Shown: positions 4,077 to 29,341 of the stretch, one piece after another
Position numbering within the stretch: position 1 is the first letter of the stretch
How the letters are laid out: every line of letters begins with the position of its first letter
NCBI GenBank assembly: GCA_036389075.1
Contig: DASVQO010000546.1
Location: 1-54,811, forward strand
Reading direction: 5' to 3'
From: Chloroflexia bacterium
GTDB taxonomy: Bacteria > Chloroflexota > Chloroflexia > QHBQ01 > JADMIH01
Length of the DNA: 54,811 nucleotides
The notes under the pieces: generated by a model
The model's input: only the letters and a program-made list of their open reading frames with translations
The model's database searches: none
Told to the model about the DNA's origin: nothing
Translations under genes and position numbers: made by a program

Positions 4077-5747
4077 ATGGATGAGGGACTACTCTTAGTG
4101 AAGCCTATAGCAACGCACCAAAAGCTTAGAGGGGGATACTACACCCCAAAGCGAATAGCTGACTTCCTCGCACAGTGGGCTATCCAGTCACCAACGCAAG
4201 AAGTTTTAGAACCAAGCTGTGGCGATGGAGCGATATTGCTGTCAGCCGTTAACAGGGTCCTGGAGCTCAACAACCATCAAGGACCCACCAGCCAAGTACT
4301 TGTCCACGGCGTCGAGTTTGATCCAATTGAGGCGACAAAAGCGGAGAGTCAAGTACAAGCTATTCTGGGCGCGCATCCATTTGCTCGGGTCTATCGAGGT
4401 GATTTCTTTGCATTTTGCCAACGGTGTTTACAGGAGGAGCGCCTGTTTGACACGGTAGTAGGAAATCCCCCATTCATACGGTATCAGAACTTCCTTGAGG
4501 AGCATCGGACAGCAGCATTCGAGGTCATGCACCAAGCTGGGCTCCACCCGAATAGGCTTACAAATGCCTGGCTTCCATTCCTTGTGGCATCTACATTGTT
4601 GTTGAGGAAACGTGGCCGTATTGCTATGGTTATACCAGCGGAGCTTCTTCAAGTGGACTATGCCGCAGAACTGCGGTCGTTCCTCAGCCAACAATACAGT
4701 AAGATAACACTTGTCACCTTTAAGCGCCTGGTGTTCGAGGGCATTCAGCAAGAAGTTGTACTGCTGTTAGGTGAGCGGAATGGTGACGCACATACTGGCA
4801 TCAGAACAATTGAACTTGATGGGTTAGATGATCTCACCTTATTTGAACATACAGACTTCTCGGCAAATCAACTCAAGCCTCTGGATCACTCCAAAGAGAA
4901 GTGGACCAGATACTTCCTAGAGCCGGAGGAACTTGGGTTATTGCGAGAACTTGAACTGCACCCCAAGCTAATATCCGCTAGCAACATCATTGATGTTGAC
5001 GTAGGAATCGTTACCGGCCTGAACGAGTTTTTTGTATTAACTCAGGAACAGGTTGTAACTCACTCTCTAGAACCCTACACCCACCGCATTGTGGGACGCT
5101 CAGGTCATCTGCCAGGTGTTCTGTTTAGTGAGTTGGATTGGAAAGCAAACGCCGCAAATAACCATCCTGCCTTTCTGCTTAGGTTACCGGACGTGCCATT
5201 CGAGGCGCTACCCGGTCCAGCCCAGAAGTACGTTACTATGGGAGAGGAAAAGGAGATAAATAAGGGGTACAAGTGCAGGATACGCAAGCACTGGTACACT
5301 GTTCCATCTGTCTGGACACCCCAGGCTTTCATGTTGCGGCAGGTACATGCTTACCCCAAGTTGGTTGTTAACGCAGCCGAGGCTACCTGCACCGATACTA
5401 TACACAGGGTGAAGCTCCTAAACGGCGTTGCTGCGCCTACTATAGCTGCTGCCTTCTTGAACTCGCTTACATTTGCCTTCACCGAAGTTTTAGGGCGGAG
5501 TTATGGCGGTGGTGTCCTTGAACTTGAACCCAGAGAAGCAGAGAAGTTACCGCTGCCACTACTTGGAGCTGAAGCATTAGACCTGAACAAAATCAACGAC
5601 CTATTACTTGCGGGTAAAATTATTGAGGTCTTGGATATGACCGACAAACAGCTCTTGCAGGATGGCCTTGGCTTGACCGCGAGTGACAGCAAGACGCTTC
5701 GGAGTATTTGGGAGAAGCTTAGAGATCGACGTATAAACAGGAAGTAA
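4077..5747 (+). CDS. Gamma-class N6-adenine DNA methyltransferase (Eco57I/TaqI-like, with C-terminal target-recognition domain)
   Basis: SAM motif I is LEPSCGDGAIL. Catalytic motif IV is VVGNPPFIRYQNF (NPPF). The N-terminus has YYTP. There is a long C-terminal TRD-like region. G+C is lower than the flanks by eye. Confidence 0.85.
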   Translation: MDEGLLLVKPIATHQKLRGGYYTPKRIADFLAQWAIQSPTQEVLEPSCGDGAILLSAVNRVLELNNHQGPTSQVLVHGVEFDPIEATKAESQVQAILGAHPFARVYRGDFFAFCQRCLQEERLFDTVVGNPPFIRYQNFLEEHRTAAFEVMHQAGLHPNRLTNAWLPFLVASTLLLRKRGRIAMVIPAELLQVDYAAELRSFLSQQYSKITLVTFKRLVFEGIQQEVVLLLGERNGDAHTGIRTIELDGLDDLTLFEHTDFSANQLKPLDHSKEKWTRYFLEPEELGLLRELELHPKLISASNIIDVDVGIVTGLNEFFVLTQEQVVTHSLEPYTHRIVGRSGHLPGVLFSELDWKANAANNHPAFLLRLPDVPFEALPGPAQKYVTMGEEKEINKGYKCRIRKHWYTVPSVWTPQAFMLRQVHAYPKLVVNAAEATCTDTIHRVKLLNGVAAPTIAAAFLNSLTFAFTEVLGRSYGGGVLELEPREAEKLPLPLLGAEALDLNKINDLLLAGKIIEVLDMTDKQLLQDGLGLTASDSKTLRSIWEKLRDRRINRK

Positions 5748-5753
5748 GAAGAT

Positions 5754-6506
5754 ATGCCCTCTCCAACACGGCCTCGATTGGCGCGCGTGCCCAAGTATAC
5801 GCTGGGGACCATGCCTGCAATTGACGTCTCTCAGGCCACCCTGGCAGAATTTGGGAAGGTATGGCTTGCCAATAAGCAGAGTTTAAGCCGGACTCCACCC
5901 TATTCATCTAACGAGTTGGGTGGGCTGTTCGACATGGCTGTAGGTAAAGCGCTTGCAGTATTGTTAGGGGATGTTCCTATAGAGGTTCCAAGCTCTACAG
6001 CCCTGACACCCACATTGCCTAATTGTGTGGAGGTCGGTCCAGTTCGGATTATAGGAGGTGTACGTCCGCAGAACTTTGACGTGGGATATCGGCCTGATGG
6101 CGTGCGATTTGCCTTCGATAGTAAGACCCTCAATGATAAGAAGAGCATTGGTAAGAACTGGCAGAACATGATTAATGATCTGGCGACAGAAGCGACAACT
6201 GTGCACACCAGGTTTCCCCATGCAGTCGTTGCCTTCATGCTGATCGTGCCACAGCCTGTACTTTCAGCTCCACGCGAGAGGGCAATAATAGGCACTTTAG
6301 AGCGTCTTGCGCGCCGTGTGAACGTGGATGACCCCAACCACCTGGCTGAGGCTATCTCCTTTGTGCTCTGGAATCCTGCTGATGGCAGCATCGATCCCAA
6401 CGTGCCGGACCCGGCTTCTCCTTTGCGCATTCAGAACTTCTCTGTGCAAGTACAGGCGGCTTACGTCAATCGTTATAAAGGTCTCCCACCCCATGCCGCC
6501 GAGTAG
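5754..6506 (+). CDS. Candidate type II restriction endonuclease (PD-(D/E)xK-like) partnered with the methyltransferase
   Basis: Starts 7 nt after the MTase stop, with AGGAAG upstream. QNFDVGYRPDGVRFAFDSKTL fits D...(D/E)xK geometry. It has the same low-G+C character. No family recognised by eye. Confidence 0.5.
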   Translation: MPSPTRPRLARVPKYTLGTMPAIDVSQATLAEFGKVWLANKQSLSRTPPYSSNELGGLFDMAVGKALAVLLGDVPIEVPSSTALTPTLPNCVEVGPVRIIGGVRPQNFDVGYRPDGVRFAFDSKTLNDKKSIGKNWQNMINDLATEATTVHTRFPHAVVAFMLIVPQPVLSAPRERAIIGTLERLARRVNVDDPNHLAEAISFVLWNPADGSIDPNVPDPASPLRIQNFSVQVQAAYVNRYKGLPPHAAE

Positions 6507-25064: not shown

Positions 25065-25967
25065 TTGCCATTACACACCACGGAAGGGCATATTAAGCCC
25101 CACCCACCCTTCGACTTTGACAAGTCGAAAGAGTTCCTGGCAGGCTTCGCACCCACGCAAAGGGACAACAAATCCGCTGGGGCGTCGTTCGCCAGGGCGC
25201 TCTCCATGGAAGGGCAAGTCGTGGCCTTTAAGCTAACCTCCACCGGCAGCGTTGAGAAGCCGGAGCTGCATTACAGGCTCCTGTCCGAGCAACCGCTGGA
25301 TGGCGGCACGCAGCGCAGGGCGCTGGACCGCGTCGCCCTATATCTCAGCCTGCACGACGACCTGGGGCCGTTCTACAGCCTCGGTCGCCAGGACCCCCTA
25401 TTCGCCCCGGTCGTGGAGCGGCTGTACGGCTACCACCAGGTGAAGTTCCTGTCGCCCTTCGAGGCGGGCTGCTGGGCCGTGCTGACCCAGCGCAACGCCA
25501 TGTCCGAGGCCCGCAAGATGCGCACCGTGCTGGCGAAGCGCTACGGTAGCAGCATAGAGGTCGAGGGCGCGACCCATTGGGCCTTCCCCGAACCCGCCCA
25601 ACTGGCGATAGCCGACCCCTCGGACCTGGGGGCTATCGCTGACAACGAGCGCAAGGGCGAGTACATGCAAGCCCTCGCCCGCGCCTTCGAGCAGGTAAGC
25701 GACGAGTTCCTGCTATCCGCCCCCTACACCGAGGTAGAATCCTGGCTGCGCGGCATCAAGGGCGTGGGCGAGTGGTCGGCGGCCTTCATCTTGTTGCGCG
25801 GCCTGGGGCGTCCCGACCGCGTACCTATGGAGAAGAACACGCTGAGGGCGATTTCGCGGGTGTACGGCGGTGGTAAAGCGTTGAGCGAGGGGGAGGCGAA
25901 TGAGATCGCGGAGAGGTACGGGGCGTGGCAGGGGTACTGGGCGCATTACCTCCGGGCAGCCACGTAA
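25065..25967 (+). CDS. HhH-GPD superfamily DNA glycosylase (AlkA / 3-methyladenine glycosylase II-like)
   Basis: The helix-hairpin-helix region is LRGIKGVGEWSAAFILLRGLGRPDRVP. Size and layout fit AlkA-like proteins. Confidence 0.75.
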   Translation: MPLHTTEGHIKPHPPFDFDKSKEFLAGFAPTQRDNKSAGASFARALSMEGQVVAFKLTSTGSVEKPELHYRLLSEQPLDGGTQRRALDRVALYLSLHDDLGPFYSLGRQDPLFAPVVERLYGYHQVKFLSPFEAGCWAVLTQRNAMSEARKMRTVLAKRYGSSIEVEGATHWAFPEPAQLAIADPSDLGAIADNERKGEYMQALARAFEQVSDEFLLSAPYTEVESWLRGIKGVGEWSAAFILLRGLGRPDRVPMEKNTLRAISRVYGGGKALSEGEANEIAERYGAWQGYWAHYLRAAT

Positions 25968-26023
25968 GCAGAACATAATTGGGTACCCGGCAGCAATTCA
26001 CACGAGGCACATGGTTGGTGCCT

Positions 26024-26908
26024 TCAATCTTTATCTGGTATGTCAACCGTATTATTTGCGTGGAGACCTACATAGGGCAATAGAGCCATATGACGTGCGC
26101 GCTTGATTGCCACTCTCAGGCCCCGTTGATGACGAGCGCAGATTCCGGTCTTGCGTCGTGACTCAAGCTTATTGCGCTCAGAGAGGTAGCGACGCAATCC
26201 CGCTACATCCTTGTAATCGATCTCCTCGACGCGATCTACACAGAAGGGGCACGCTTTGCGGTGAGGTACATAGCGATCGCCACGGCCGTGAGGAAGACCT
26301 AAATTGCGCGCTTGAGTACCCCCAGGGCTGCTTGCAAATCGGGACAGCTTGGCGGCGAACTTGGACAGCTTGGCAGCATCTTTGGTAGGTGCGGCGGGTA
26401 ACTTAGACGGCCTACCGCCGACGAATGAAAAAGGGAGGGCAGCAGGGCGGTGTTCAGCAGGCTGTTGCAGATTTTCAGTTTCCCTATCGGATGTCAAGCC
26501 CGGCTCCCAAAATTCTACCTGCTCATAAGGCCAGGGAACGCTAATCGGTTCGCGGCCTTCACGTTGGGCGGCTTGCCATTCATCTTCCCATGATACCCGT
26601 ATTACCTTCTGGGGGGTACCGGCTCGATTCTCTATTTCCTCTATGTCTGACACCGCGCGCAGCCCAACGCGCCACGATCCGTCTTCAATACGCACCTGCA
26701 CAGTGTCCCCCGCGTGGAACTGGGGCTGGAGTTCTCCAAAGAGAGTCAAAGATGGAGTAGCCTGTTGCTCACGCACGGCACCGGCAGCTCTTAGCAAGCT
26801 CTCTACCGCATCACCGCGCTGCTTGGCCCACTTTCTATTCTTACTCGCTCGATTATGCTTGTCCCCTGTGTCGTTCATCTTGCTATTCGCCTTTGCCATA
26901 GTGGACAT
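26024..26908 (-). CDS. Fusion protein: ~200-aa N-terminal region of unknown family plus a C-terminal ribosomal protein bS18 domain
   Basis: C-terminal [65 protein letters not shown] aligns by eye with E. coli and B. subtilis S18 (RK.C.F....EIDYKD..L..(Y/F).(S/T)E.GK....R.TG..AK.QR.L..AIKRAR..(A/S)LLPY). The frame stays open across about 200 upstream codons in DNA that is not G+C-rich. The linker has an AAKLS(K/R)F tandem. The start could also be ATG 26899 or 26878. Confidence 0.75.
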
Positions 26909-27458
26909 TCTTCTCTCTAAGAATTACATGTCCTCGGCTATAAGTCAAGGTCGCACCCAAGGCTTGTGTAACAGCTAAAACCTGATTGACAAGCCGCCCA
27001 TCAGGGTCTGCTATTTCTATGGTATCACTTGCCAAGAGCCTGGCTCCTGCAAAGCCATGCTCGACAAGCACGTCCATCACAACATCTCTCTCCTGCCCAG
27101 CAAGTAACTTGATTCGATAGATGAACCCCTCGCTTTCATCATCTGGTGCGAACAAGAGGACGGCAGATTGGTTGTACCGGGCACCCAATTCATCAGCCAG
27201 GTCGATTATATGCTCTAAATCACCGGTGAGCCAGATTGATGCTGCTGGTTCGGGCACACCTCCCCACACGCCTTCAGTTCGCTCAGAATAGGTTACCCTT
27301 ATTCCACGTTTCTCCGCTGCTCTCTTCAGATAGTTCTCAAAGCCCTTGTAACGTGTAGTCCGAAAATAGTCTTGTCCTGCACTAGTTCGACTGCCACGAT
27401 AAGGCGTAATGCCCATGTTCACAAGTTGGTGCTTGAGTCCATCCTCTTCGCTACTCAC
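26883..27458 (-). CDS. Hypothetical protein (191 aa), first gene of the S18-fusion cassette
   Basis: Uninterrupted ORF in lower-G+C DNA. It overlaps or abuts the downstream S18-fusion gene. It has a GTG start with a weak AAGG upstream. No family recognised. Confidence 0.5.
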
Positions 27459-27695
27459 ACGGGCAACCTTACCAACTCCGCCTTGAGTCGAGCTAAATTG
27501 CTGTAGAACAATCGCCGGATATTCCCTGCTTACATTTTACAAGATAGTCCAACTCTACATACCCACCTATTTTTGGTCCTCAAGTCACTCATTTCAACTT
27601 AGGCTAGAAGCTTGTGCTTGATAAATGGTCGGTTGATCGAGTACTCGGCTCTCCTCCACATGCAGAACAAATTTTAACATTCCGTGCCTAAACCA

Positions 27696-27724
27696 TTGAC
27701 AAATTAGAACAAATTTGCTATAAT
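27696..27724 (+). promoter_or_regulatory. Perfect sigma70 consensus promoter driving the annealase and HTH genes
   Basis: TTGACA (27696-27701), an exact 17-nt spacer, then TATAAT (27719-27724). The spacer contains the inverted repeat caaatt/aatttg (27700-27705 / 27712-27717). AGGAGG RBS lies at 27832-27837 before GTG 27846. Confidence 0.7.
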
Positions 27725-27845
27725 TTACTTGCAGGTGAGACAAGGGCCCGCTGCTGAGAAGGCCCGAAGCGCACCCGCGAAACACAGCGCGATAATCGAG
27801 TAGAGAGCTTGGATGAAGAGTTTTAGAGCTTAGGAGGCAACAGTA

Positions 27846-28766
27846 GTGAGTGCTAAGAAGATTGAGCAAGAAGAGTTTCTAGCGGAAGTTCCGGCTGAGG
27901 TTGCGGGGGCGGCTATTATGCCCGCGTCGTTGCTCGCCGACACCCCCACCCAGGCGGAAGCACCTGAGGCCGGCAGCGGCGCCAGGGCCAAGAACGGCGC
28001 GAAGGGCCAGGGCCGCACCCCCTTCGATCCCACCCAGTACCTCAGCAACTTCGACGGCCGCGAGTACCTGGAAGTCAAGTGGCGGCTCCTGTGGCTGCGT
28101 AGCGAGCACCCCGATGCCCGCATGGCCACCGAGATCGTCCAGCACAACGAAGAAGGCGGCTTCGCCCTCTTCCGCGCCGAGGTCGAGATACCCGGCGGCG
28201 GCAAGGCCACCGGCTGGGGTTCCGAGACGGTCCGCGACTTCCACGATTACATCGAGGCAGCCGAGACCAAGGCGCTGGGCCGCGCACTCGCAGCCCTCGG
28301 CTACGGCACCCAGTTCTGCCAGGACTTCGACTTCTCCGCTAACGCCCGCCCCGGCACCAGCCAGGTGGTGGACGCGCCCGTGAACCTGGCCGACCGCCGC
28401 AACAACGGCTATGCCGCCAGGAGCAACGGTAACAGCGGCAGCGGCAGCGGCAGTGGCAACGCGGGCAAGAGCGGCGGTTTCGCCAACAGCGGCTTCAGGA
28501 CCGCACCCGCCAACGATGGTGGCCGCATGCCCGCAGAGGACGATGAGTTCGACCGCCTGCCTGCCGCCGAGATCTCTCCCAGCGGCTCCGCGGCCACCGA
28601 GAAGCAGATCAAGGCTATCTACGCTATCGGCCGGGCCAGCAAGCGCCTCTCCGAGAGCCAGGTAGACGACCGGGCAGTGGAGATCTTTGGCGTCCGCCCG
28701 CAGGAGCTAACCAAGGCCGAGGCTTCGCAACTGATCGACATGCTCAAGGGCGACACGGCGGCCTAA
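27846..28766 (+). CDS. Rad52/Sak-like single-strand annealing protein with Gly/Ser-rich linker and C-terminal helical domain
   Basis: GGGKATGWGSETVRDFHDYIEAAETKALGRALAALGYGTQF resembles the Rad52/Sak signature (G.G.........A.TDA.KRA....G.G). There is a low-complexity NGNSGSGSGSGNAGKSGGF linker. The C-terminus is TEKQIKAIYAIG...LTKAEASQLIDMLKG. Confidence 0.6.
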   Translation: MSAKKIEQEEFLAEVPAEVAGAAIMPASLLADTPTQAEAPEAGSGARAKNGAKGQGRTPFDPTQYLSNFDGREYLEVKWRLLWLRSEHPDARMATEIVQHNEEGGFALFRAEVEIPGGGKATGWGSETVRDFHDYIEAAETKALGRALAALGYGTQFCQDFDFSANARPGTSQVVDAPVNLADRRNNGYAARSNGNSGSGSGSGNAGKSGGFANSGFRTAPANDGGRMPAEDDEFDRLPAAEISPSGSAATEKQIKAIYAIGRASKRLSESQVDDRAVEIFGVRPQELTKAEASQLIDMLKGDTAA

Positions 28767-28783
28767 CAAGCAGGAAATAGCGA

Positions 28784-28840
28784 GTACCAAGTACCAAGTA
28801 CCAAGGGCCGAGAGGTTTGAATCTGCTCGGCCCTTGGTAC
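28784..28840. repeat. Heptamer array (GTACCAA)x3 merging into a 15-bp-stem hairpin
   Basis: gtaccaagtaccaagtaccaagggccgag (28784-28812), a 13-nt loop, then ctcggcccttggtac (28826-28840). It lies between the annealase stop and the HTH gene. Confidence 0.7.
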
Positions 28841-28863
28841 CCGGAACTATTGGGAGAACGGCG

Positions 28864-29136
28864 ATGACAGACGAGATGTACACTACAAAGCAGGCGGCGA
28901 TCTACCTTGGGCTCACCGAGGCGGACGTGCGGCTGGCGATACGCGAGGGCAAACTGCGGGCCTGGACCATGCCAATGAGCCGCAACTTGCTGGTGCGCCG
29001 CAGCGACTTGATGCACATGCGCGAGTCGGGCGCTCACGCCACCCTTACCCGCCAGCTGCCTCTGTTCGCCGCCGACAGCTACGGCACGCGCAAGAAGCGT
29101 CAAGAGGAAAAGGCCGCAGAGTCGGACGTTGCGTAG
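28864..29136 (+). CDS. Excisionase-family (MerR-like) helix-turn-helix DNA-binding protein
   Basis: YTTKQAAIYLGLTEADVRLAIREGKLRAW matches the excisionase-family HTH pattern. GGGAGA lies before ATG 28864 (inside ORF 28834..29136). Confidence 0.7.
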   Translation: MTDEMYTTKQAAIYLGLTEADVRLAIREGKLRAWTMPMSRNLLVRRSDLMHMRESGAHATLTRQLPLFAADSYGTRKKRQEEKAAESDVA

Positions 29137-29289
29137 TGGTTAGTGCTTAGTGGTTAGTTGACGAAGCGGACAGGTTAGTTCGCTTGGATCGTTGAGCCGG
29201 GTAGCTCCAGTGTGAGCCCCGGCTTTGTTGTGCGCGGCGAGGCCAACCGTGCTCCTCTTCCCTAACCACTAGCCACTAGCCACTAGCCA
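29134..29289. repeat. Inverted heptamer arms (TAGTGGT/TAGTGCT versus ACCACTA/GCCACTA) around a terminator hairpin
   Basis: Left arm is tagtggttagtgcttagtggttagt (29134-29158). Right arm is ctaaccactagccactagccactagcca (29262-29289). The inner hairpin is agccggg (29195-29201) / cccggct (29218-29224), followed by ttgttgtg. Confidence 0.6.
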
Positions 29290-29341
29290 TGCGTGCTTGC
29301 AAAACGACAGCCTCGTGCAGCATGGTTGCGTCCCCCATTCC

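Follow-up and report, generated by a model that had tools for sequence, protein, structure and literature searches.

A ribosomal protein bS18 domain as an exchangeable C-terminal module of a rare two-gene cassette in a Chloroflexia genome

Why a chromosomal gene of a Chloroflexia bacterium should end in a complete domain of ribosomal protein bS18, behind about 200 amino acids (aa) of other sequence, is the question raised by positions 26,024 to 27,458 of contig DASVQO010000546.1 (assembly GCA_036389075.1; the 54,811 nucleotides analysed here are called the window). Two genes are located there on the minus strand, both taken from a six-frame list of open reading frames (ORFs). Gene A (26883..27458, 191 aa) has a GTG start at 27458, and gene B-S18 (26024..26908, 294 aa) has an ATG start; the two overlap by 26 nucleotides (nt). 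The JGI gene call for A begins at Met15 and gives a protein of 177 aa, and candidate starts of B-S18 are found at codons 1, 4 or 11. A first-pass annotation had taken the pair for a mobile-element-borne S18 mimic which docks a passenger domain on the 30S platform. The comparisons presented here indicate that S18 is one of several interchangeable C-terminal modules (none, TIR, sigma-like or S18) on a constant core, which is accompanied by gene A in a rare two-gene cassette.

Gene B-S18 is composed of successive segments, all on the minus strand. The B core (26489..26821, codons 30-140) is the module of ~110 aa that stays constant in the alignments of the B family. It is followed by a linker (26294..26488, codons 141-205), predicted to be disordered with a predicted local distance difference test (pLDDT) value <50, and by the captured bS18 domain (26058..26293, codons 206-284), identified by its Pfam, TIGR00165 and PDB matches. 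The invariant positions of the core include GD.V.VR..GSW..GLR and PWPY.QVE. A low-confidence model of its secondary structure gives a helix, four short strands, another helix and the PWPYEQVEF motif.

In the search with B residues 1-213 among 5.8 billion proteins, eight clusters were retrieved, all sharing residues ~30-140. Their C-termini are different. Four of the eight stop shortly past the core (152-208 aa), two continue into a TIR_2 domain (6.2e-17 in protein P0003 and 6e-27 in the other) and two into S18. The latter two, namely the window protein and P0002 (66% overall identity), are the only clusters with an S18 fusion in this collection. When 1.84 billion representatives were searched exhaustively with a profile, the B family grew to 137 cluster representatives, of which six are close and ~130 are distant small proteins of 65-160 aa having the beta domain only. 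One more kind of C-terminus was found in P0140 (L014:6497-7504), where the core precedes a sigma70/ECF-like region of ~190 aa matching phrog_1740 'RNA polymerase sigma factor' (8e-7), Sigma70_r2 (0.0075, sub-threshold) and Sigma70_r4_2 (0.042). The cassette of this contig has the lowest G+C content at third codon positions (GC3) among the cassettes, that is, 0.38-0.48.

The N-terminal two thirds of the ORF, previously described as an orphan sequence, are thus better seen as a conserved modular core, which exists also alone or with TIR and sigma-like regions. Scans of Pfam, NCBIfam, PHROGs and PADLOC returned no family for A or for the B core, with the sole exception of phrog_37576 (unknown function), which matches eight distant B-like proteins. 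A short B-like protein is also present in an IMG/VR viral contig. Neither the profile of the B family nor that of A led to a useful match among PDB sequences, and the AlphaFold model of the full 294-aa B-S18, built with an alignment of eight sequences, was too poor (pLDDT 45) for a fold search of the core.

The exchange of the C-terminal module can be followed at a single locus. The window is syntenic with L005 and L006, two contigs of a related organism, and the 306-aa protein encoded next to the cassette is 89% identical in them. The blastn alignments to these contigs show ~82% identity over 28765->26486 and 25959->25284, with a gap between. The segment within this gap (25960..26485, minus strand) has no counterpart in L005/L006, where a TIR_2-coding segment is found instead. 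In detail, P0003 (L005:1997-2827) has its TIR placed exactly where the window has the linker and S18. The C-terminal module was therefore exchanged in situ between syntenic loci. A third contig, L008, aligns with the window from end to end at 81%, the S18 part included, and its HhH-GPD protein is 90% identical. The S18 fusion is therefore older than the split between the window and L008, which is placed at dS (synonymous divergence) ~0.7.

The two TIR fusions differ in their putative active sites. P0003 has Arg and Lys at the positions where P0006, AbTIR and PdTIR carry Trp and the catalytic Glu. Judged by these residues, the TIR of P0003 is probably not an NADase, and that of P0006 could be one.

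The S18 domain at the end of the ORF is real and intact, as the first-pass annotation had stated. Profile searches fix its boundaries: Pfam Ribosomal_S18 (PF01084) covers B residues 227-277 (1.8e-20; 73.2 bits, cut-off 21), and NCBIfam TIGR00165 covers residues 216-280 (window 26069-26263; 3.6e-26; 91.2 bits, cut-off 38.75) with model positions 4-68 of 70. Against PDB sequences, phmmer matched 70 bS18 chains spanning positions 3-74 of a 75-aa S18, and B residues 1-210 matched nothing there. The domain is of the zinc type, with C220, C223, C257 and H260 all present (CxxC...C...H). Compared with 120 close canonical S18 proteins, the domain deviates at only four of the positions with a conservation of at least 90% (V219A, I248L, T256I and R285N). 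The loss of Cys ligands that characterizes zinc-independent (C-) paralogs is not seen, and the domain is C+ like the canonical copies.

The closest relatives of the domain are the S18 proteins of the same bacterial class. Its aa identity to canonical Chloroflexia S18 is 85% for P0020 and P0021 and 88% for P0025, and its nucleotide identity to the canonical rpsR genes of L009, L010 and L019 is 79-82%, extending from codon ~206 to codon ~284. These values indicate that the rpsR of the host lineage itself was the source of the domain. The nearest canonical genes sit in rpsF-ssb-rpsR-rotamase operons. Canonical S18 had been assumed to be 75-90 aa long, which is wrong for this clade, where it has 137-160 aa with an N-terminal Gly/Pro-rich extension of 60-85 aa (proteins P0020-P0028). 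The extension is tandemly repetitive, with GGGGGG(Y/F)RSGPRPGG occurring twice (L009:8001-8483, L010:703-1164, L019:~610-1106). The canonical rpsR of L019 has been cut to 67 aa by a gene caller. In the window, the canonical ...PHAR end is substituted by a different C-terminal tail (26024..26057 with the stop codon, minus strand). The same replacement of the tail is found in the second fusion ortholog, P0002 (...PDKD).

This copy of S18 lies outside the rpsF-ssb-rpsR context, as proposed originally. No S6, SSB or second S18 was found in the 54.8-kb window, and neither an rpsF-ssb/priB-rpsR-rplI neighborhood nor a host-like codon usage accompanies the domain. It is highly likely that a canonical rpsR resides elsewhere in this genome, for three reasons. 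The sister genome carries TIR at this locus and so must encode its S18 elsewhere. The closest S18 in the databases (P0025) is located in an ssb-rpsR contig of the same ENA series (ERZ272531xx) that yielded the fusion. Finally, the GC3 of 0.51 is far from that of the host (~0.84).

Selection was examined by comparing the window gene with that of L008, which encodes P0002. Their alignment contains one indel, of 9 nt. The ratio of nonsynonymous to synonymous substitution rates (dN/dS) is 0.135 for the S18 domain and 0.17 for the B core, and thus both folded parts have been kept by selection. For the linker (codons 141-212 in this calculation) it is 0.74. The linker, with a length of ~65-70 aa and an AAKLS(K/R)F tandem, evolves almost neutrally. 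Its descent from the Gly-rich extension of canonical S18 was considered and rejected as unsupported, with no significant similarity found. Canonical S18 of this clade naturally begins with a disordered stretch of matching length (60-85 aa), and therefore a cargo tethered at the N-terminus would be sterically plausible.

The window gene and its ortholog of L008 are both free of stop codons between core and S18, and therefore a ribosome initiating at B must make the fusion. As evidence for the fusion, the survival of this open frame is weak, since 12.6% of the neutral linker descendants remained open in a simulation. Start-type codons occur near the junction of core and linker in both genes, namely TTG at codon 138 in the window and ATG at residue 132 in L008. 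The GGGAG that lies ahead of TTG138 corresponds to conserved Trp-Glu codons of the core and is found also in homologues without S18. The same B-S18 fusion gene is present, in identical form, on at least 12 contigs assembled separately from JGI, ENA and Logan samples, and therefore it is not a chimeric assembly artefact. The JGI samples with the gene include 3300034393, 3300034005 and 3300034135.

The product of gene A could be modelled with confidence, contrary to the full-length B. The AlphaFold model (alignment of 11 sequences; pLDDT 87.8, predicted template modelling score 0.82) consists of a beta-alpha-beta-beta-alpha-beta lobe with a long hairpin and a second alpha/beta lobe, that is, two ferredoxin-like lobes. 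In Foldseek searches against PDB, the matches were tandem ACT-type regulatory subunits, the S-adenosylmethionine (SAM) lyase of phage T3 and ribosomal protein S6. The T3 enzyme was matched as 8bb1_E with E 3e-4 and a template modelling score normalized by the target (TMt) of 0.61, and 6zm9 and 7ock were matched too. S6 gave TMt 0.65-0.69 over ~100 columns. The best matches in BFVD were internal domains of phage large polyvalent proteins of more than 1000 aa (E 2.5e-9 to 1e-5; query-normalized score, TMq, 0.58-0.67), followed by phage SAM hydrolases/lyases (TMt 0.54-0.63).

Sequence profiles point in the same direction at lower strength. Eight of the 11 members of the A family match the Pfam S-AdoMet_lyase family (PF23780) weakly, the best at 1.5e-4 and below gathering. 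For instance, P0018 reaches 15.9 bits (cut-off 28), and the window A protein has no match to this family. In the hhalign comparison of A with the single T3 SAMase sequence, YNQSAVLLF was aligned with WEQDCVLVY at 4% probability. The invariant residues of the A family include G63-x-W65, E70 and Q97, which in a sequence-level alignment are collinear with G55-x-Y57, E68 and Q94 of T3. Glu and Gln are 27 positions apart in A and 26 positions apart in T3, and the aromatic position of the first motif is conservatively substituted (W65 in A, Y57 in T3). Gly, Glu and Gln are reported to be strictly conserved among SAM lyases (PMC7877911), and Glu and Gln are the sole structurally conserved residues in common with the SAM-AMP lyase (PMC12255297). 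The respective pairs are E69/Q104 in Svi3-3, E68/Q94 in T3 and E71/Q108 in the SAM-AMP lyase (PMC7877911, PMC12255297).

Homologues of A are also found within or beside very large proteins. In a viral contig (L018:1744-6597), a 1617-aa phage polyvalent protein with internal repeats, encoded after a MuF-like gene, ends in an A-like domain. In L011:1-12975, a 324-aa homologue of A is flanked by one ORF of 2793 aa and another of at least 1894 aa, beside a DNMK kinase. On these grounds, A is best described as a putative free-standing version of a polyvalent-protein domain with the SAM-lyase fold, for which an enzymatic activity is at most predicted.

The 191-aa protein had been suggested to be an S6-like interactor. 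The ferredoxin-like fold and the presence of S6 among the PDB matches agree with this suggestion, but A is closer to polyvalent-protein domains and SAM lyases. A role as an S6 mimic is not specifically supported, because A pairs equally with B proteins without S18, and S6 is one of many matches of the ferredoxin fold; the idea is kept as a lead.

The pairing of A and B is conserved. In every readable Chloroflexi contig, a homologue of A (35-76% identity) is located directly upstream of B. In six contexts the two genes are coupled through overlaps of 17-38 nt or gaps of 10-15 nt. This is in accordance with the tight coupling noted at first sight in the window, and the pair, not its surroundings, is what is conserved. 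The neighborhoods all differ and include EF-G with an ABC transporter, TetR with a hydrolase, the rpsF operon, the 306-aa gene with HhH-GPD, and others. The GC3 of A-B is 0.38-0.65 (0.38-0.54 in four of the five loci), compared with 0.60-0.83 in the flanks. The value of A is below its flanks in all five loci, and that of B is usually below too.

The cassette is rare, with 8-11 clusters among the 5.8 billion proteins. The search of 185,579 species genomes with a profile of A retrieved two distant loci only, neither of them from the organism of the window: one in a Chloroflexi metagenome-assembled genome (MAG) and a split copy in a Solirubrobacterales MAG. No close relative of A or B was found in IMG/VR or in GenBank phages, the latter including a tblastn search of A. 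Taken together, the distribution and composition indicate that A-B is a rare, horizontally moving two-gene cassette.

Two loci have particular features. In L012:2898-6430 (Chloroflexi MAG GL140_3, JANXYP010000202.1), a module-less A-B pair is located ~950 bp from the rpsF-ssb-rpsR operon and divergent to it. This proximity to rpsR may be a coincidence or a hint at the route of rpsR capture; the gene orientation rules out a fusion via simple deletion. In L017:5614-6592 (Solirubrobacterales MAG SHVA01000040.1), the A-like gene is split in two ORFs, the first having a lipoprotein-like N-terminus and the second carrying the C-terminal lobe, with no B gene after them. Such a structure suggests a frameshifted or decaying copy.

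In the window, the cassette is a solitary element of 1.9 kb and two genes with a foreign composition, located in an ordinary chromosomal region. The G+C content is 0.51-0.55 in the bins of 26-28 kb and ~0.63 in the rest of the window. GC3 is 0.46 in gene A and about 0.51-0.53 in gene B, compared with 0.72-0.89 in six neighboring genes and ~0.84 in the host. The deviant codon usage reported for the pair is therefore evident. The surrounding genes are of RpoD-type sigma, PQQ-repeat, HhH-GPD, SLH-domain, MutS and similar kinds. No integrase, prophage, phage or other mobile-element gene was found around the cassette in the window. The initial view that the pair is borne by a mobile element holds with respect to its foreign composition and its patchy, horizontally moving distribution, and fails with respect to the genes around it. 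Similarly, the two genes do co-occur in Chloroflexi contigs, but the window pair is not part of a prophage.

The reading that we favor, tentatively and with slightly more doubt than belief, is that the cassette is a conflict-type module in which the captured S18 directs A and the B core to the 30S platform. A and the B core would be the constant working unit, and the C-terminal module would set where or how this unit acts. The S18 module would still bind the native partners of bS18, namely S6 and the central domain of 16S rRNA, and the fusion would occupy the place of bS18 on the 30S platform or compete for it. The constant unit would thereby be tethered near the mRNA exit and the anti-Shine-Dalgarno region, where it would mark, modify or disable a subset of the ribosomes. 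The conflict role may be that of an addiction or abortive-infection type module, or of a remnant of a mobile-element takeover module. Docking on the platform is the most economical reading of the S18 module, and the binding itself is a prediction.

A more general form of this proposal is possible, though doubtful. The core may use captured subunits of cellular machines as address tags (bS18 for the ribosome, the sigma-like region for RNA polymerase), which would deliver the SAM-lyase-like partner or its regulatory action. The S18 fusion would then represent a tagged 30S sub-population.

Several observations weigh against the addressing of A and the B core to the ribosome. About half of the cassettes are without any C-terminal module, and therefore the A + B-core unit must work without an address; these module-less cassettes are the weakest point of all models in which the C-terminal module is central. 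A TIR domain is usually an effector and not an address. The link of A to SAM lyases is below the Pfam gathering score, with only 4% in the hhalign comparison to T3. The binding of the fusion to S6, rRNA and the 30S, as well as that of A to B, is a prediction, and the evidence for a second, canonical rpsR in this genome is indirect. A free S18 of 156-157 aa could also be made from an internal start. With regard to known systems, PADLOC-DB 2.0 returned no match to A, B-S18, the sigma-like fusion or P0018, and only the TIR part of P0003 was matched, by TIR models. No toxin or antitoxin family of Pfam, NCBIfam or PHROGs matched A or B, and no integrase or phage gene lies near the cassette in the window.

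The presence of TIR, a hallmark effector, in the same position as S18 leads to a different arrangement of roles, in which the C-terminal module is the weapon of an abortive-infection system and A with the B core is a sensor or safety catch. TIR would deplete NAD+, the sigma-like region would sequester RNA polymerase and the bulky S18 fusion would poison the assembly or the platform of the 30S, as a dominant-negative effector. P0006 has the same catalytic W..E motif as AbTIR and PdTIR, the cassette resembles defence islands in its mobility and rarity, and the second low-G+C island of the window, with an Eco57I-like restriction-modification methyltransferase, shows that such islands exist in this genome. 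On the contrary, the TIR of the sister locus (P0003) is without the W and E of the catalytic motif, and the module-less cassettes, which are about equally common, would have no weapon. The strong purifying selection on the native residues of S18 fits normal binding as well as poisoning. This arrangement is considered unlikely.

Quite improbable, in our estimate, is a third arrangement, where the modules are baits. The variable part is the sensor in many immune systems, and the S18 copy is a faithful mimic of a host protein. In such an integrated decoy, the modules (bS18, sigma, TIR) would mimic host targets of effectors from phages or plasmids, and an attack on the bait would free the SAM-lyase-like A from inhibition by the B core and arrest the cell. 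This would agree with A as the constant, enzyme-like component, which has many invariant polar residues including a Glu and a Gln that align with those of the lyase family. The SAMase of T3 is toxic at high expression (PMC7877911). The lyase activity that the arrangement requires of A is weakly supported (sub-gathering PF23780 scores, 4% in hhalign), the module-less cassettes would need another trigger, and no PADLOC match was obtained. We know of no phage effector targeting bS18.

A role outside conflict, in which the gene is a lineage-specific alternative bS18 giving a sub-population of ribosomes an extra N-terminal domain for housekeeping or stress, is still harder to accept. It would be compatible with an intact S18 domain under purifying selection, with the long N-terminal extensions that are usual for S18 in this clade, and with the bS18 paralogs of other bacteria (PDB names bS18A/bS18B and 'S18 C-'). 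Against it, the same core carries a TIR or sigma-like domain elsewhere, and TIR is found even at the same locus. Furthermore, the fusion is restricted to two clusters among 5.8 billion proteins, its GC3 (0.51, with the host near 0.84) speaks against a well-adapted ribosomal gene, and a C+ domain like that of the canonical copy is no zinc-sparing C- paralog.

Finally, that only an internally initiated S18 of ~157 aa is made, or that the fusion is a non-functional recombination product, is very improbable: a start-type codon does lie near the junction in both fusion genes, preceded by GGGAG in the window, and the stop-free linker is only weakly significant, but this GGGAG belongs to conserved core codons present also in S18-less homologues, both orthologs are open throughout, core and S18 have remained under purifying selection since a split at dS ~0.7 with a sole 9-nt indel, and at least 12 independent assemblies contain the gene in identical form.

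The cassette has some wider implications. If the fusion enters the 30S, this would be the first mobile module exploiting a captured bS18 to place a cargo on the ribosomal platform. The core with TIR, sigma-like or S18 modules provides a natural domain-swap series on how small conflict modules pick their cellular target. A and the B core are two uncharacterised protein families, which link cellular cassettes to polyvalent-protein domains and the SAM-lyase fold. In the most conservative reading, the locus shows that foreign DNA has recently captured a domain of an essential ribosomal protein and kept it under selection. No description of the S18 fusion or of the A-B cassette was found in the literature searches.

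Upstream of gene A there is an AT-rich divergent intergenic region (27459..27845, G+C 0.45). On the minus strand, a weak promoter-like site for gene A was found by consensus match (27597->27569). On the plus strand, a perfect 12/12 sigma70 consensus promoter (27696-27724; TTGACA, 17 nt, TATAAT, upstream TG) precedes the 306-aa gene. A terminator-like hairpin (26004..26024, plus strand), also a consensus match only, is placed between gene B and the convergent HhH-GPD gene. No Rfam match was obtained in the region 25500-29300 or upstream of A, with SAM and other riboswitches included in the search.

The 306-aa gene (27846-28766, plus strand) has phrog_27776 (unknown function) as its only match. 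Its product has a Gly/Ser/Asn-rich middle and no match among PDB sequences, and the precomputed label of its L005 ortholog is PF27148 Slr1353_N. A 100-aa gene of HTH_17/excisionase type follows (28834-29136, plus strand). The first-pass annotation had named the former Rad52-like and described the two as a module back to back with the cassette. The excisionase-type assignment of the 100-aa gene was verified, and the Rad52-like label could not be confirmed. Both genes have host-like GC3, are missing from the other contexts of the cassette and are not carried along with it.

The second low-G+C island of the window (4077-6506, plus strand, 0.49-0.50) encodes an Eco57I-like N6 DNA methyltransferase of 556 aa (M_Eco57I_C, 3e-43) and then a 250-aa ORF without a Pfam match. 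The two may form a type II restriction-modification pair.

Compared with canonical bS18 (PF01084/TIGR00165, C+), the C-terminal 80 residues of B are a full-length S18, 85-88% identical and with the ligands kept. The window copy differs in being located outside rpsF-ssb-rpsR, behind a foreign core of 140 aa and a linker, with a foreign codon usage and another tail, and in being replaced by TIR at a syntenic locus.

Virus-encoded ribosomal proteins are known, for example, bS21 and bL12 of phages (Mizuno et al. 2019, PMC6375957), and S18 is absent from the text of that survey, which covers 14 viral ribosomal proteins. In common with them, the cassette provides a host ribosomal protein a second time, on DNA that moves horizontally, and this copy could plausibly displace the cellular one or compete with it. 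In contrast to them, this copy is fused to an adaptor domain and resides in a solitary chromosomal cassette, not in a viral genome.

Gene A resembles the SAM and SAM-AMP lyases (T3 gp0.3, Svi3-3 and the SAM-AMP lyase of C. botulinum; PF23780) in its ferredoxin/PII-like fold, its weak hidden Markov model matches and, at the level of the sequence alignment, the collinear positions of its G-x-aromatic, Glu and Gln residues. It is distinct from them in its second lobe, its sub-gathering score and its constant coupling to B in the Chloroflexi cassettes. Structurally, A is matched best by domains located inside the giant polyvalent proteins of phages and conjugative elements (Iyer et al. 2017, PMC5512222), whereas A itself is a free-standing protein of 191 aa encoded in a cellular chromosome; the A-like domain is not described in the text of that paper.

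With toxin-antitoxin and abortive-infection modules, A-B shares two small, translationally coupled genes, a patchy distribution, a foreign composition and a swapped C-terminus that includes TIR. It differs from these and from defence modules in that neither A nor the B core matches a known toxin, antitoxin or defence family, and in that the swapped modules include non-enzymatic subunits of the core machinery (S18 and sigma-like). Conclusively, both accessory copies of ribosomal proteins on foreign DNA and two-gene modules with domain swapping are known, and the A-B cassette is a variant of both.

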